Both the position numbers and the translations under genes were made by a program. The notes beneath the pieces were generated by a model, which was given only the letters and a program-made list of their open reading frames with translations, searched no databases and was not told where the DNA came from. From a virus (lineage: Duplodnaviria; Heunggongvirae; Uroviricota; Caudoviricetes), in IMG/VR virus record IMGVR_UViG_2526164662_000049: a DNA stretch of 44,479 nucleotides. The stretch is one strand, 5' to 3'. Of this stretch, positions 24,229 through 30,003 are shown piece after piece. How positions within the stretch are numbered: position 1 is the first letter of the stretch; each line of letters starts with the position of its first letter.

Positions 24229-24487
24229 TGGTTTGTGCTGCCCTGTTTTTCTCAAAAGTCCTGATATCGGCCTTATCCCTGTTGCACTGTGCTAACGCTG
24301 ACAACAACGCAACATTCAGGTTAAGGCTGGCTCCCCACGTAAACGGGTCGGGTAAATCTGGCTGGGGTGTTTCATCCGTCAGACTGGCTGGTAACGGAAC
24401 GACCGGCACCGACACGTATACCGTTCGCGTATTCGTGCAACCGCTTAACTGCGCCAGAAGGAACGATACGAACAGCACAATCATCAT
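24209..24487 (-). CDS. o-spanin lipoprotein (Rz1-like), overlapping Rz in another frame
   Basis: lipobox LSGC after hydrophobic signal, proline-rich mature part; starts within Rz and extends past its stop. Confidence 0.55.
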   Translation of the reverse strand: MMIVLFVSFLLAQLSGCTNTRTVYVSVPVVPLPASLTDETPQPDLPDPFTWGASLNLNVALLSALAQCNRDKADIRTFEKNRAAQTNGTIKR

Positions 24488-24764
24488 CCGCAACAGCCAC
24501 TTTGATATCTTCCTGGGTTCTCTGTGACTCCAGTGCGATCTGCTGTTTTGCATGCTGGTTAGCCTCTATAACTGTATTGATGATTTGCAGTGATTGCAGG
24601 ACGTTACTGGTAATGGCTGTTGCAGATTCAGCATTTCGTACAGCCTCATCAGCACGCTCCTTTTCGTGTTGATATTTGCTGTAGTAATGCCCGGCAGACC
24701 AGATAAAAGAACCGATGACGGTAACAAAGAAGGCAACAATAACCAGCTTATATCTCAGCTTCAT
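24372..24764 (-). CDS. i-spanin (Rz-like)
   Basis: 130 aa, N-terminal TM helix then coiled-coil; directly downstream of endolysin. Confidence 0.75.
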   Translation of the reverse strand: MKLRYKLVIVAFFVTVIGSFIWSAGHYYSKYQHEKERADEAVRNAESATAITSNVLQSLQIINTVIEANQHAKQQIALESQRTQEDIKVAVADDDCAVRIVPSGAVKRLHEYANGIRVGAGRSVTSQSDG

Positions 24765-25224
24765 TTACCACCCCACCAGCTTCTTTAAATCGGGAAATCA
24801 GGTCACCGATTCTATGTTCATACTGACCGTAACCTGCACCAGGTAACGACGCCCAGATATTGCTGCAACGGTCGATTGCCTGACGAATATCGCCGCGGTC
24901 AATCATCGGTAAAGCGCCACGCTCTTTAATCTGCTGCAGCGCTACAGCATCCTGGCTTTCTGGAGAAAAATCTTTCAGACCAAGTTGCTTGCGGTAGGCA
25001 TCCCACCAGCGTGAAAGAAGCTGGTAACGTCCGGCGGCTGTTGATTTGAGTTTCGGATTTAGCGTGACAAGTTTGCGAGGGTGATCGGAGTAATCAGTGA
25101 ACAGTTCGCCACCAACAATAACATCATAACCGTGGTTACGTGTCGGTTGTCGCCCGTTATCCGTTCCTTCTGACCATGCCACCATATCAAGGAAAGCTTT
25201 ACGCTGGGAATTAAGTGTCTGCAT
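24748..25224 (-). CDS. endolysin, lambda R-type lytic transglycosylase
   Basis: 158 aa; near-identical over long stretches to recalled lambda R (RKAFLDM.AWSEGTDNGRQ.TRNHGYDVIVGGELFTDYSDHPRKLV). Confidence 0.85.
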   Translation of the reverse strand: MQTLNSQRKAFLDMVAWSEGTDNGRQPTRNHGYDVIVGGELFTDYSDHPRKLVTLNPKLKSTAAGRYQLLSRWWDAYRKQLGLKDFSPESQDAVALQQIKERGALPMIDRGDIRQAIDRCSNIWASLPGAGYGQYEHRIGDLISRFKEAGGVVNEAEI

Positions 25225-25227
25225 TAA

Positions 25228-25578
25228 TTACTCCTTATGGGCACCGAACTTGTTACCGATGACCCTCATTGCCGCACCACGAATAGCATCAACACCAATC
25301 AGCCCCACCCCACCACCAATGGCAACAGAAAGTGATTTAGGCCATCCGACATACTCAAGCGCGGATGCAAAGGTCAGCGTCAGAGCACCACAAAGCAGAA
25401 TCTCAAGCGTTTTTCGTTTCCAGCCGCCGCCACCGCCAAAATAGGCAATGCGCAAACCAGCCATAATAATTGACATAACCACTGCACCCAGCGGCGTATC
25501 TCCACGCCACCAACTTTGTAAGAGTTCCAGTAAGTCAGGCCAGGAATGAGGGGCATTGTGCATTTTCATAAGCCTCAC
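25228..25578 (-). CDS. holin (possible dual-start holin/antiholin)
   Basis: 116 aa with hydrophobic helices, N-terminus MRLMKM with several in-frame Met; immediately upstream of endolysin. Confidence 0.7.
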   Translation of the reverse strand: MRLMKMHNAPHSWPDLLELLQSWWRGDTPLGAVVMSIIMAGLRIAYFGGGGGWKRKTLEILLCGALTLTFASALEYVGWPKSLSVAIGGGVGLIGVDAIRGAAMRVIGNKFGAHKE

Positions 25579-25786
25579 CTCCGAGAGTTCGGATGGTGCT
25601 AAGTGTAAGATTCAGGCTCTCAGGCTTGCTAACAAGAAGTCGAGGATGTTTCCGGAGCCTAACAACGAAAAAGCCCCGGGACATGCCGGGGCCAGATGGA
25701 GTGCCAGATTAAGCTTTTGGCGGTATATACTCGTGTTTGATATCGTTAAATCGCCAAAAGTAACAATTCAAACAAAGAGGATTTTT

Positions 25787-25948
25787 ATGTCTGAAAAAAA
25801 CAAGCCACAAGGTGAAAATAAACCTCAGCAACCCGTGGCACCAAAACCAACTCCAACACAAAGTACTGCAGACTTTGCTACACGTCGTGTTTTTGTTGGA
25901 GATTCTGCCGACTCAGTCATTGAACATATAAAAAAACAGCCGAGATAA
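25787..25948 (+). CDS. small hydrophilic protein (53 aa), convergent with and overlapping 3' end of membrane-protein gene
   Basis: ATG preceded by AGAGGA RBS; MSEKNKPQGENKPQQPVAPKPTPTQ...; unknown function. Confidence 0.35.
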   Translation: MSEKNKPQGENKPQQPVAPKPTPTQSTADFATRRVFVGDSADSVIEHIKKQPR

Positions 25949-26486
25949 ACATCGCCGCTACCGGAGCAAGGATAGTATACATCCTTGCTTTATCGAGACT
26001 CGTGCGGATTTTCTCATTTTCCAACAGTAACTCTCTTGCTGTATCACTCAAGTCAACAAGGCGATACCTTCGTATAAGCGGCAATAACTTATCAGGTCCT
26101 AAATATCCTGCATCAGCGAATATTTTAAAGCTCGAGGGCTCCATATCCTTATATTTTTCATGATATAGATGATCAGGAGGGGCATTGATCAGGCCCCTAA
26201 CCTTCACAGATAAACCAGTACATACCAAGTAAATGGCGCACCATGTCCATAGTAATGTAAATGTGGTAATTCCGGCGGTGAGAAAATCGAAATTAGTTTT
26301 CTGTGTCAGCAATAAAAAAGATGAGCCAATTCCAACAATCTGAATGTTCAGAAGTTTGTATCCATTCTCAACATTGGTTTTGTTAGAAAGATGAATCTCT
26401 CGTATCGTCTCTTCCCCTTGTTTTTCAAGATAATCGACGAGCTCATCATCTACTCCTAAAAAATAAACTTTAGGTAGTTCTCTCAT
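25917..26486 (-). CDS. AT-rich cargo gene: membrane protein (about 189 aa, 3 predicted TM helices)
   Basis: start MRELPKV preceded by GGAGGTGAG RBS; extended -10 promoter upstream; located between Q/pR' and lysis cassette. Confidence 0.55.
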   Translation of the reverse strand: MRELPKVYFLGVDDELVDYLEKQGEETIREIHLSNKTNVENGYKLLNIQIVGIGSSFLLLTQKTNFDFLTAGITTFTLLWTWCAIYLVCTGLSVKVRGLINAPPDHLYHEKYKDMEPSSFKIFADAGYLGPDKLLPLIRRYRLVDLSDTARELLLENEKIRTSLDKARMYTILAPVAAMFISAVFLYVQ

Positions 26487-26595
26487 CTCACCTCCACATC
26501 CTGTACTGAACACAATTTTACCAGAATGTCTCGATTCCAGGTATTCCGCCAGGAATCGCGCTCCAGAAATGAAACATCAGGTTCGCCAGTACCAG

Positions 26596-26621
26596 AAACA
26601 ACAAAACCCGCTCAATGGCGG
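26596..26621 (-). terminator. putative terminator between ORF6N-like gene and membrane-protein gene
   Basis: minus-strand hairpin cccgc/gcggg followed by T-rich run. Confidence 0.35.
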
Positions 26622-26719
26622 GTTCTGGTAAAGTTCATGCGCTTGGTTCGCCTCGCGATACAGCTTTGCGAAGCGTACCGGGATTGAAGCAGTTTATGGC
26701 TAAAATTGCAAGAACTTTT

Positions 26720-27331
26720 TTAAAGCTGCATCAGCCTTTCCACCAGTTTATCTCTGCGAACAACAAACCAACCATTGGCTCTCGCCAGTTCCAGCCATGA
26801 CTCAAGGGAAATAACAATATCATCATCCCGCAACTGAATTGTGGAAACAGTGACACCGCCTCGCTGATAACAGAGAACTCGCGTGTCGTAACTTTTCTGG
26901 CATGAAACTGGCGCTGACGGATCCTTTTGTCTGAAATAGCAGTCTTCCAGTCTTTCGAACACATCCCACGCCTGATCGGTTTCGAGCATTTTGGCATGAC
27001 GGCCTGCTCCGCGTTCTGTCCAGAGTATGAGGGAGCGGGCTTTCGGGGAAATTTGTAACCCTCTTAAAGATGGTTGCAAATTTTGTGAGTTACTTAAAGT
27101 AACCCGCAAATTTTGTGAGTAGTTTAAAGCTACCCGCAATTCTTTAAGGTCATTACCAACAACTTTGAAAAAGTGTTTCCCTTCAACGAAGCGTACTTTG
27201 TTCTCATGATGATTCTGGCGAATACGCACCGGCTCAGTGCCGTAAAGCTGCGCCAAAAGTTCGGTGGTAATAACAGGAATCTGGTTATGGGTGATCGGGG
27301 AGAGAGTTTCAACAGAAATTTGAGTTGTCAT
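26720..27331 (-). CDS. ORF6N/KilA-N-like DNA-binding domain protein (antirepressor-like)
   Basis: 203 aa; N-terminal ITTELLAQLYGTEPVRIRQNHHENKVRFVEGKHFFKV resembles ORF6N domain; contains internal tandem repeats. Confidence 0.55.
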   Translation of the reverse strand: MTTQISVETLSPITHNQIPVITTELLAQLYGTEPVRIRQNHHENKVRFVEGKHFFKVVGNDLKELRVALNYSQNLRVTLSNSQNLQPSLRGLQISPKARSLILWTERGAGRHAKMLETDQAWDVFERLEDCYFRQKDPSAPVSCQKSYDTRVLCYQRGGVTVSTIQLRDDDIVISLESWLELARANGWFVVRRDKLVERLMQL

Positions 27332-27490
27332 AATGACGCCCTCTGGTGGTTTCTTAATAACTCACCACCGACGACGCCAATCGTCTGGTGGTGAACTGTG
27401 CAGGGTTGGCGTAACCGGGAAACCGACCGGCGCGGATCTCTCCGCCCCCACACAGCCCACCATAATTCAGATGTGCGCGTGCATACGACA

Positions 27491-27514
27491 ATAAAAAACA
27501 CGCTCGCGGCGTGT
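27491..27514 (-). terminator. tR'-like terminator downstream of late promoter
   Basis: minus-strand hairpin acacgc-cgcga-gcgtgt followed by TTTTTTATTG. Confidence 0.45.
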
Positions 27515-27575
27515 ATCTGTCGCGGTCTCTATCCAGGACGCCAATCCCGACGCCAGATTTTGCTGGCGCGTGAGG

Positions 27576-27605
27576 AATATAGCCCCGGATAACAGATTGA
27601 GTCAA
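27576..27605 (-). promoter_or_regulatory. late promoter pR'-like (TTGACT-N18-TATATT) immediately after Q
   Basis: sigma70-like elements read on minus strand directly downstream of Q stop, as in lambdoid phages. Confidence 0.45.
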
Positions 27606-28156
27606 CAGACGGTTTTTAGATCCCCGGAAGAGAATGCATCACGCATCGGCAGATAGAGCATAAACTCTGCCATTTTCAACCACGCATCTATGCGATTACG
27701 GCACGTGGCGTAACACCACTCAGGGTGTGAATCATTCAGCAATTCAGCCATTTTTCGCTTAGTCATCCCCCGCCCTTCATATCGTTGCCGGAGGATACAA
27801 ATCAATCCTGGGTGTTCTGCCAGCACTTCACTAATCACCCGATCAATACATAACGCCTCTGCATCAGTACAATGCACCAGCCAGCTTTTTTGCTTGCCGT
27901 TGATCATATCCCGCAAAAAAGCCTCAAGTTCAGGTTTGTCCAGACCTGCTTTTTTCATCCTCCGGAGCGCCTCGTTAATTGCCGTTTTTGTCAGCTTTTT
28001 AGAGGTCAGCAACTGGTTGAACATATTTCCCGTCTTACCGCCGCCAATATACGACCAGCGCCCCCACATGCGCAGTTTTCCCTGAATCCAGACACTTTCC
28101 AGCGTGGTGAGACGAAGGTGTTCCCCGCTTTTGCCTGTATTTGTTGGGTAAATCAT
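27602..28156 (-). CDS. late antiterminator Q
   Basis: about 184 aa from MIYPTNTG; Cys-rich C-terminus; sits between nin-like genes and pR'/lysis genes; ATGA coupling to upstream gene. Confidence 0.7.
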   Translation of the reverse strand: MIYPTNTGKSGEHLRLTTLESVWIQGKLRMWGRWSYIGGGKTGNMFNQLLTSKKLTKTAINEALRRMKKAGLDKPELEAFLRDMINGKQKSWLVHCTDAEALCIDRVISEVLAEHPGLICILRQRYEGRGMTKRKMAELLNDSHPEWCYATCRNRIDAWLKMAEFMLYLPMRDAFSSGDLKTVC

Positions 28157-28443
28157 AAATAACCTTCCTTTCTCCAGATTTCTTGTGTGCGAAAAACACC
28201 TTCTGCATGCATCAGGCGTAATTCTTCTTTGGTGTAATCGCTGGTTTTTACCCGCCCGTCGATTAAATCGTGGCATGAGCTACAGGCAATCGCTGCCTGC
28301 ATATCGTGTGGTTTTGTCGCTGTTCCGCACGTCCCCGCCAGCCTGTAATGCGCCAGCACAGAAGTTTCGGGATTGTGATTGCAGTAGCCAGGAATTCTGA
28401 CGGTGCACATCTGCCCCCGCGCCGCTTTACGTAAATCCACCAT
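28153..28443 (-). CDS. DUF1364-like phage protein (YbcO-like, Cys-rich)
   Basis: 96 aa with CxxC...CxxC pattern; conserved position before Q. Confidence 0.55.
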   Translation of the reverse strand: MVDLRKAARGQMCTVRIPGYCNHNPETSVLAHYRLAGTCGTATKPHDMQAAIACSSCHDLIDGRVKTSDYTKEELRLMHAEGVFRTQEIWRKEGYL

Positions 28444-29042
28444 TACGCAAACTCCAGTAACTGCGCGGCCACATTTTCGACTTCCTCCGGAGAGGAAAAT
28501 TTACGGAACAGGATCCAGTTCCACAACACATTCAGTACAGATTTATAAACCTGCTGAAACACGGTTTCGTCCATGTTCGCAAATGCGATAGATTTTGCCC
28601 TGCGCCCACGACTACCATCAGGATAAATATGCTCGGTGTAAAATCCGGCCTGAATGGTTACCCACTCGCGGAAAGCGTCAAACGACTTTAGCAATGCCGT
28701 ATCCCGGGTTCTGCATGTCGCAACGGTATTAAGGTATTGCTCTGCGGCATCACTCAGGGCTGGAGTGTGTTCCCGACCTACTGATTCGCACAGGTAATCA
28801 ACGAAGCCCGATACCAGTTTTCGTTCGCGAGGCGTGATCGCCCCACCGACCGGAGTCCAGTAATCGAATCCCAGTTGCAGGAGTTTGAAAAAACGCTTGT
28901 GGAATGCGTAGTTACGCACACGCTTAAAGTCTGCGTGTATCCACTCACCTATTTTGATTTGATGCAAAAAATCGCAACTCTCCGGCGTCGCCGGGAGAAG
29001 TAATCCGGAAGAGGTTTGTTTGACCAGTTGTATATGCGCCAT
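28443..29042 (-). CDS. DUF1367-like phage protein (YdfU-like)
   Basis: 199 aa; position and recalled similarity to Qin prophage ydfU-type proteins. Confidence 0.55.
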   Translation of the reverse strand: MAHIQLVKQTSSGLLLPATPESCDFLHQIKIGEWIHADFKRVRNYAFHKRFFKLLQLGFDYWTPVGGAITPRERKLVSGFVDYLCESVGREHTPALSDAAEQYLNTVATCRTRDTALLKSFDAFREWVTIQAGFYTEHIYPDGSRGRRAKSIAFANMDETVFQQVYKSVLNVLWNWILFRKFSSPEEVENVAAQLLEFA

Positions 29043-29601: not shown

Positions 29602-29757
29602 TTACTCCTCAGGTTCGTAAGCTGTGAAGACAGCGACCTCCGTCTGGCCGGTTCGGATTCGTACCTCGCAGAGGTCTTTCCTCGTTACCAGTGCCGTCAC
29701 TATGACGGTTAAACAGATGACGATCAGGGCGATTAACATCGCCTTTTGCTGCTTCAT
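29602..29757 (-). CDS. hokD: Hok-family type I toxin (HokD/RelF-like)
   Basis: 51 aa MKQQKAMLIALIVICLTVIVTALVTRKDLCEVRIRTGQTEVAVFTAYEPEE; terminator hairpin downstream at 29513-29535. Confidence 0.8.
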   Translation of the reverse strand: MKQQKAMLIALIVICLTVIVTALVTRKDLCEVRIRTGQTEVAVFTAYEPEE

Positions 29758-30003
29758 AGCCTGCTTCTCCTTGCCTTTCGGCACGTAAGAGGCTAACCTA
29801 CATTTGTGAGACATAGATTGGGCCTCAGATTAATGTTAAGCGTCTTGCAGGACGCGTAATGTTAACTGGGGCTTTTCTCTATCTGCCTTTTGGTGTTCAT
29901 GCCTGAGACAGATAGCCTCAAGCACCCGCAGCAATTCTACTTAACTCTCCTTTTCCCGCAAACCGTTTTTACCCGATATGGGAATTCCCATATCGTAATG
30001 AAT

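Follow-up and report, generated by a model that had tools for sequence, protein, structure and literature searches.

The window analysed here, a stretch of 44,479 nucleotides (nt) from IMG/VR virus record IMGVR_UViG_2526164662_000049 (Caudoviricetes), is a lambdoid prophage in which the minus strand carries the late genes. Between its Q antiterminator gene and its lambda-family holin gene lies an AT-rich cassette of two convergent genes, which we call M189 and S53 after the lengths of their predicted products. M189 (25917-26486, minus strand, ATG at 26486; WP_001208724.1, phrog_11870) would encode a membrane protein of 189 amino acids (aa), and S53 (25787-25948, plus strand; phrog_14506) a hydrophilic, basic and proline-rich peptide of 53 aa (isoelectric point 9.7, 13% Pro). 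The two open reading frames (ORFs) meet at their 3' ends and share 32 bp (25917-25948). A near-identical prophage with matching annotation is present in Escherichia coli strain 8178 (locus L001 of our comparison), where both genes are labeled "hypothetical protein." Judging from the comparative data set out below, M189/S53 is a self-contained two-gene prophage moron, conserved as a pair, widespread in the prophages of Enterobacterales and found also in Mu-like and P2-like prophages.

Before anything can be built on such a pair, the smaller ORF has to be accepted as a gene. S53 is short, of low complexity, often missed by gene finders and represented by only 16 clusters in the protein database, and it might be a by-product of sequence constraints at a locus where only M189 matters. 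We consider this highly improbable. M189 homologues were compared at 92 loci, made up of 11 species-representative genomes (from Trabulsiella, Serratia, Yersinia, Enterobacter, Leclercia, and Gilliamella), 80 IMG/VR viral contigs and the window itself. A profile of S53 finds a homologue at 89 of the 92, in each case sharing approximately 20-35 nt with the 3' end of the membrane gene, and the pairing is well beyond chance. The three exceptions are a locus with an insertion sequence (IS; L010), one with a truncated membrane gene (L012) and the Gilliamella locus, which carries a shorter analogue (MNKQKEQQPSPKPVPRFVGNEQEKKK). S53 occurs in 43 distinct versions of 47-64 aa, all of them open and differing in length by multiples of three, and site entropy at codon positions one, two and three is 1.00, 0.76, and 1.41, with the third position the most variable. 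The median pairwise ratio of non-synonymous to synonymous substitution (dN/dS) is 0.34. The N-terminal half of the peptide is variable and rich in Pro, Gln, and Lys, and is followed by a conserved core, DF(S/A/T)xxRxx(V/I)G(D/N)SA(D/E)xx(R/K)KK, which lies just outside the overlap, so that coding constraint on M189 cannot account for it. Together with a conserved ribosome-binding site (RBS) and ATG, these patterns argue that S53 is a real gene under purifying selection.

The start codon of S53 can also be judged by comparison. The original prediction had placed an AGAGGA RBS ahead of this ORF and an overlap of about 32 bp at its end; both are present (RBS at 25776-25781, plus strand), and a GGAG-like element is kept 6-9 nt ahead of the ATG in 29 diverse loci. 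RefSeq, through its annotation pipeline PGAP, instead calls a 71-aa protein from a GTG at 25733 (WP_071779784.1), and other records hold calls of 100 or 130 aa. No start other than the ATG at 25787 with its RBS is conserved, whereas the stretch upstream is conserved as DNA with a frame that differs between loci. These comparative data support the 53-aa ATG start over the 71-aa call.

Each gene appears to be equipped with expression signals of its own. For M189 the original prediction had described a strong RBS, an extended -10 promoter and a terminator between it and the gene upstream, and all three were located. The RBS is GGAGG at 26495-26491. The candidate -10 element, TGgTAAAAT (26515..26523, minus strand; TG at 26523-26522, hexamer at 26520-15), was read from the sequence, with promoter activity presumed, and sits within a conserved block, CATTC(A/T)GGTAAAAT, approximately 25 nt ahead of the RBS. 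Different genera share this block, with the consensus catT.aGgT...AAaAT and a constant distance to the start codon, and similar elements are seen in the distant members L100 and L013. The terminator (26602..26627, minus strand) was called by a terminator scan and separates M189 from the preceding ORF6N anti-repressor-like gene; of 30 diverse loci, nearly all have one at this position, with stems that differ in sequence. At four loci (L042, L085, L045, and L055) a lambda-like pR' with the CAACGATGGGTTA motif precedes it and it is clearly the tR', and in relatives with Q directly upstream it corresponds to the tR' of the late promoter. A second terminator on the minus strand lies downstream of M189 (25672..25693, from the same kind of scan), beyond both S53 and the S53 promoter region, and a hairpin with an A-run is found at this position in almost all loci, again with variable stems.

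Among the non-coding parts of the module, conservation across genera is highest in a block upstream of S53, T(C/T)TGATATCGTTAAATCGCCAAAAGTAAC (25738-25764, plus strand), which contains a candidate -10 element, either TGaTATCGT or TTAAAT. It is the probable site of the S53 promoter -10 and of the start of the 5' untranslated region; promoter function is put forward here as a prediction because a consensus promoter scan makes no call at the block. The motif GTAACCAC occurs both in this E. coli block and twice around a TATAAT in the distant member L101, a hint that it may be part of an operator. At the L101 locus (5538-6005; module P0174) a ribbon-helix-helix gene precedes the small gene on the same strand, and the TATAAT, the -10 of the small gene, is flanked by the direct repeats GTTACCACAACTTATAA and GTAACCACAACTTATAA. 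Between the downstream terminator of M189 and the S53 promoter region, an alignment of 29 loci reveals a small, conserved inverted repeat, CCAGA-N-T(C/T)TGG (25704..25720). A 9-bp inverted repeat (CTTTTGGCG/CGCCAAAAG, 25714-25760) was also considered and was dropped as a structure, as it is without covariation in other loci.

The 3' end of S53 is marked by a stem-loop that lies 10-25 nt past the stop codon (25963-25991, plus strand), in the part of M189 that encodes (A/V)R(M/I)xTIL(A/T)P. Structure prediction recovers it at every one of 29 diverse loci. Over 37 distinct sequences and 14 pairs, read on the S53 strand, there are 377 Watson-Crick, 87 G-U and 17 A-C cells, with compensatory exchanges between GC and AT at two pairs and CG, UG and UA at a third. 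As G-U pairs become C-A mismatches on the other strand, the large excess of G-U over A-C indicates selection for the structure in the plus-strand RNA, where it is a probable terminator or 3' stabilizer of the S53 transcript. An Rfam scan found nothing within the module. The hairpin also fixes codon choice in M189 at residues ~166-175 (Arg as AGG), and there is an apparent amino-acid covariation at this place, Ala...Ala vs. Val...Thr. It thus reads as an RNA structure that shapes a protein sequence in an overlapping antisense setting.

With the M189 terminator placed past the S53 promoter region, and the S53 hairpin placed inside M189, the predicted M189 mRNA would be complementary to the whole S53 RNA. 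Antisense coupling therefore seems to be built into the architecture for the two predicted transcripts. The original prediction of a two-gene, antisense-coupled unit is strengthened accordingly by the conservation of the pair, the placement of the terminators and the covarying hairpin.

The M189 protein was predicted to have a soluble N-terminus, two central transmembrane (TM) helices and a C-terminal TM helix, and hydropathy and an AlphaFold2 (AF2) model agree on this topology: an acidic N-terminal helix, a TM hairpin, a helical and probably cytoplasmic segment of ~70 aa, and a C-terminal TM helix. On the Kyte-Doolittle scale residues 76-94 and 167-189 are strongly hydrophobic, and a conserved Gly/Ser-rich helix covers 45-62. 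The AF2 model (pLDDT 82.7, pTM 0.64) is all-helical, with helices 14-62 and 68-92 forming a hairpin (46-62/68-92) followed by a long C-terminal helix. In this model the acidic N-terminal helix runs on into the Gly/Ser-rich membrane helix, the second TM helix (TM2) spans approximately 68-94, and the soluble helices total ~120 aa. Basic residues cluster right after TM2 and right before the third TM helix (TM3), which places both soluble segments in the cytoplasm according to the inferred topology and hence within reach of a peptide without a leader, such as S53.

Homology searches give M189 a family without a name. It has a full-length match to a PHROG family of unknown function (E=2e-107) and 104 homologous clusters in Enterobacterales, nearly all of 189 aa. 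Searched against Pfam, NCBIfam and PADLOC, M189 and S53 gave no match, and in PHROGs they reached families of unknown function only; neither window protein matched the defence models of PADLOC-DB v2, and M189 returned nothing at E≤1 from Pfam or PADLOC. A sequence profile search of the PDB was likewise empty (best E=0.1), and literature searches by accession, PHROG identifier and topic found no paper on either protein. The earlier judgment that neither protein is recognizable holds: there is no named family, and fold searches lead to generic long-helix bundles.

Relatives of M189 extend well beyond the lambdoid loci. Clustered at 50% identity, the relatives from an exhaustive profile search (160-200 aa) form 103 clusters and reach down to ~20% identity; a second homology search with a diverse alignment (A2) was dominated by close relatives and brought no gain. 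Nine distant relatives were inspected, and prophage genes adjoin seven of them. A convergent short hydrophilic ORF overlapping the 3' end is present in all eight that have enough downstream contig, and is Pro-rich in seven. The ninth, P0184, adjoins a portal gene on a contig that ends too early after the gene to show a partner. Among the eight, P0240 (L095) is in a Mu-like prophage between DNA-circulation and baseplate genes, with the small ORF (V)SNSKNPVPNPQPIRRDTHDHNSKRPTPPSKPPKQ; P0180 (L099) and P0174 (L101) are lambdoid, respectively beside cI and downstream of it, with MSNKKEKSPPPPPPPPPQKSG... and MSNQKSSQSKSPKSTKPAAPASPIPEQVRFFDS...; P0192 (L098) and P0237 (L107) are P2-like, near C, CP76, and Ogr, with MLNRPDDEPETEEQDGPSYPIDDWQTDDFNDQSNDHITFTTE (acidic and not Pro-rich) and MSQSNIPVVPQPAPEQRDLPNTQPGQPKQ. 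P0212 (L108) lies on a short contig where neighbors are not visible (MATKPSTPKPSPSPSPSTPSKSPVKGSVPGNNNGNTRGRYKGS), the neighbors of P0225 (L109) have no Pfam family (M(TRGF)MTNKNPVPATETERRNQVPVHDRKPVQPK), and the Gilliamella member (L013), with the analogue noted above, follows a tape-measure gene. The other seven of the eight are distant relatives, at ~20-30% identity. As the family occupies Q-holin, Mu tail, cI-adjacent and P2 immunity slots, it is best seen as a mobile accessory module and not as a part of lysis or morphogenesis, and its context appears to be exclusively prophage. The complete cassette is found in 223 of 5426 complete E. coli genomes (~4%), a further 1121 having the flanks only, and in five of 50,697 deposited phage genomes.

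In the window, the cassette lies in the position that the original prediction had recognized as a lambdoid cargo site, a claim borne out by gene layout, low G+C content and variable presence. Listed by decreasing coordinate, the order is a NinB-like DUF1367 gene (28443-29042), a DUF1364 gene (28153-28443), the Q antiterminator gene of the DUF1133 type (27602-28156/28276), a sigma-70-like promoter (27605..27576), a terminator below Q (27514..27498), the ORF6N anti-repressor-like gene (26720-27331, minus strand) and then the cassette, after which come the lysis genes for the lambda-family holin S (25228-25578), the endolysin (24748-25224) and Rz (24372-24764). The G+C content falls from ~0.50 in the flanks to 0.38-0.43 in the cassette. 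In phage vB_EcoS-473R12 the cassette comes directly after Q, without the ORF6N unit. The slot between Q and S is that of stx, whereas bor and lom are lysogen-expressed genes elsewhere. M189/S53 resembles such Q-to-S morons in being an AT-rich insertion with its own predicted promoter and terminator, but differs in being a convergent two-gene unit that is also found in other prophage types and slots. Its own signals (with promoter activity presumed), its place between conserved phage genes, its variable presence and its atypical composition are the traits by which we class it as a moron, a concept described previously (PMC3594210).

Several further elements of the surrounding region were observed. 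On the minus strand at 27384-27582, in the interval that follows Q directly and precedes the ORF6N gene, Rfam matches were obtained to isrK (27493-27569, 75.5 bits), to the c4 a1/b1 target element (27530-27582) and to the C4 antisense RNA (27384-27467, 66.7 bits); these elements are missing from relatives such as vB_EcoS-473R12. Together with the ORF6N gene they look like an antisense-controlled anti-repressor unit, similar to P1 immI or to Gifsy-1 IsrK/AnrP, that was inserted between Q and the cargo module. After the ORF6N gene there is a second pR'-like promoter, TTGCAA-17-TTCAAT (26683-26711, minus strand), followed by the terminator at 26602-26627, so the window seems to carry two tandem late-promoter/terminator units. 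This second block is kept in L067 and L081 and lies directly after Q in phages without the ORF6N unit. A hokD type I toxin annotated in the E. coli 8178 prophage (L001 10023-10178) maps to ~29604-29759 of the window (minus strand), and the prophage therefore also has a classical type I toxin-antitoxin locus. Outside the region shared with the window, the early region of L001 (10576-12533), the closest relative, holds three adjacent genes, for an ATP-binding protein, a protein with an STAS-like domain and a hypothetical product, which have the appearance of a further accessory or defence cassette; this is the point at which the window and L001 diverge.

The position beside the lysis genes raises the question of whether M189 could be a lysis-timing accessory, transcribed under Q antitermination just before S-R-Rz and modulating the holin by depolarization or as a pro- or antiholin. 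In lambdoid loci M189 is indeed the first gene to follow pR'-tR', with the holin gene immediately downstream of it, and late read-through would raise M189 and occlude S53. However, M189 has no holin family match in Pfam or PHROGs and no antiholin match, and S has an MKM dual start of its own. The module also has its own predicted promoter and terminators, most related prophages lyse without it, and it recurs in Mu-like tail, cI-side and P2-like immunity regions far from lysis genes. A role in lysis timing is thus improbable and was rejected as the main explanation on account of the non-lysis positions. The outcome that would have spoken against the original prediction, a membrane protein that turns out to be a known lysis accessory, has not materialized, given the missing holin and antiholin matches, the dual start of S and the sites outside lysis regions.

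A different kind of relationship came to light in a scan of 64 diverse family members against effector models. P0174, a full-length M189 homologue (profile E=7e-22; tblastn 31% identity, E=5e-10), matches the PADLOC model of PycTM (PDLC02364) at E=1.5e-8 over model positions 7-152 of 160 (146 positions), and the model of the 2TM effector of cyclic-oligonucleotide-based antiphage signaling systems (CBASS; PDLC00700) at E=4e-5 over positions 23-168 of 173 (also 146). P0240 matches the latter model at E=2e-3, and two other members give faint matches to YLATT. A precomputed table labels P0174 as Pfam PycTM. PycTM is reported to disrupt membrane integrity once activated (PMC11224242), and the PycTM studies that we found deal with canonical cyclase-linked systems. 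SLATT 2TM proteins have been described as predicted pore-forming toxins with a variety of partner sensors (bioRxiv 10.64898/2026.04.29.721553). M189 shares with PycTM and CBASS 2TM effectors a size of ~160-190 aa, an all-helical make-up and a TM hairpin flanked by cytoplasmic helices, and is a small helical protein with a TM hairpin as expected of the CBASS 2TM/SLATT class; by analogy, its activity may be membrane disruption. It differs from them in having an extra C-terminal TM helix, and in that its partner is a convergent antisense mini-gene and not a signal-producing enzyme.

M189 cannot be counted as a member of either system. No cyclase is encoded among the neighbors of the window M189 or of P0174, P0240, P0180, P0184, P0192, P0237, and P0225; the family members inspected have neither a CD-NTase nor a reverse transcriptase gene as a neighbor; and no Pfam match to a cyclic-nucleotide-binding domain was obtained in M189 or the 64 members, the AF2 model of M189 being entirely helical. 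Without such a neighboring enzyme or nucleotide-binding domain, both Pycsar and CBASS membership fail. By analogy with the matched effectors, the M189 family may nonetheless act in a similar manner.

The gene arrangement itself has parallels of another sort. Convergent toxin/antisense pairs with 3' overlap are known from Bacillus subtilis prophages (txpA/RatA and bsrG/SR4), and the par locus of Enterococcus faecalis belongs to the same class. M189/S53 resembles these type I toxin-antitoxin (TA) systems in its convergent 3' overlap, membrane-targeted product, small transcript predicted to end in a stem-loop, and prophage location, and at the level of genes and signals the overlap is of the type I kind, with 32 bp of coding sequence shared and each terminator inside or beyond the partner unit. 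It differs from them in two respects, as the putative toxin has 189 aa and is not a hydrophobic peptide of fewer than ~60 aa, and the antisense transcript would encode a conserved peptide with an RBS and not be a non-coding RNA. Type II TA genes are co-transcribed; M189 and S53 are convergent and not operonic. In logic, the closest precedents are SieB-Esc of lambda and P22 and S107/S105 of lambda, in which a membrane effector is restrained by a small product of the same locus. The likeness lies in a lethal phage membrane protein checked by a small co-encoded inhibitor, but the inhibitors in those systems are in-frame N-terminal variants and S53 is on the opposite strand. Family scans found no sequence similarity of M189 or S53 to either system.

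Taken together, our preferred though tentative reading is that M189/S53 forms a toxin-antitoxin or abortive-infection-like module in which a membrane effector is restrained by an antisense-coupled small gene. In such a module, M189 would be a potentially harmful inner-membrane effector expressed in the lysogen from its own promoter, as would S53 from its own, with both genes insulated from the late promoter by tR'. S53 could restrain M189 through interference by convergent transcription or by antisense RNA, for which the head-on transcription and full-length complementarity of the predicted transcripts would provide, and its peptide would probably also bind M189, whose acidic cytoplasmic helices could be contacted by the conserved core and basic tail. 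Phage infection might tip the balance by halting transcription or translation in the host, so that the restraint by S53 is lost; alternatively, Q-antiterminated late transcription could flood the M189 gene and occlude that of S53. The freed M189 would then permeabilize or depolarize the inner membrane, and the outcome could be abortive infection, exclusion of competitors or prophage addiction.

A more specific form of this reading, which we regard as unlikely as it stands, would make the pair a class of prophage immune or addiction module not recognized before, with M189 as a SLATT/PycTM-like pore effector without a nucleotide sensor that is controlled by a dual-function convergent gene, acting both as an antisense RNA and through a Pro-rich peptide antitoxin or sensor. 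Within it, one possibility is that the peptide reports shut-off of host transcription or translation, or translation that depends on polyproline and elongation factor P.

Natural variants of the locus bear on the restraint by S53 proposed above. An A7/T7 run within the overlap (25930-25936) is a site where deletion of one nucleotide alters both C-termini. The deletion is present in at least seven complete E. coli genomes (H74-H80), seen as an 820-nt match against 821 nt and with one gene annotated. The membrane protein of strain EC20 has 190 aa, the small protein of the deletion variant has ~80 aa, and an 80-aa small-protein cluster exists (P0110). In a second A7 run, in S53 codons 3-5 (25794-25800), a 1-nt deletion causes a frameshift in L027. 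In an Enterobacter metagenome-assembled genome (L010, 5594-6393), the insertion point of an IS transposase coincides with the 3' end of the membrane gene, and the small gene has been removed. The converse is seen in Leclercia (L011, 5001-5572), where the membrane gene is frameshifted and the small gene intact.

A number of these and earlier observations weigh against a restrained toxin. In L027, the A7-deletion lineage and L010 the small protein is altered or lost while the membrane gene stays open, which makes a strictly essential protein antitoxin doubtful, and M189 pseudogenes and fragments are common (P0035, P0084, and the L011 frameshift). The U-tract of the S53 hairpin is weak in many loci, leaving the efficiency of S53 termination uncertain. 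The effector models match in only two of the 64 family members, the match of P0174 to Pfam PycTM (PF18967) is sub-threshold and confined to TM2 (E=0.016, 16 bits vs. a cutoff of 27), the window M189 itself reaches no Pfam, NCBIfam or PADLOC model, and all three fold searches yielded nothing more specific than long-helix bundles.

The tolerated loss of an intact small protein would suit a non-suicidal superinfection exclusion, to which we give a modest chance, in which M189 blocks DNA entry or an early step of incoming phages and S53 tunes the level of M189. P22 SieA, T4 Imm, and HK97 gp15 block DNA entry or another early step at the inner membrane in this manner. A small inner-membrane protein encoded by a prophage moron with its own predicted promoter and flanking terminators would be in keeping with this, as would the family members beside cI and immunity regions, where lysogen-expressed genes sit. 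However, exclusion leaves unexplained why a coding antisense partner under purifying selection is kept down to ~20% identity, and M189 shows no similarity to the SieA, SieB or Imm families, its sole family-level similarity being to suicide effectors. A purely selfish addiction module, or another form of lysogenic conversion acting on stress or envelope physiology, with no role in defence, seems rather doubtful to us. Addiction draws on the same architecture as the toxin-antitoxin or abortive-infection reading, and hokD is present in the same prophage, but the frequent M189 pseudogenes and fragments argue against strong addiction, and nothing ties the family to any physiological pathway.

If M189/S53 proves to be a restrained membrane-killing effector, this module of ~1 kb would add a defence or addiction system that is missing from current catalogues. 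It would also mean that small TM effectors of the CBASS and Pycsar type have been wired to another form of control, an antisense-coupled mini-gene that encodes a peptide. The conserved overlap, and an RNA hairpin that appears to dictate codons within a coding sequence, are rare and may be instructive both for gene annotation and for our understanding of RNA-protein co-evolution.

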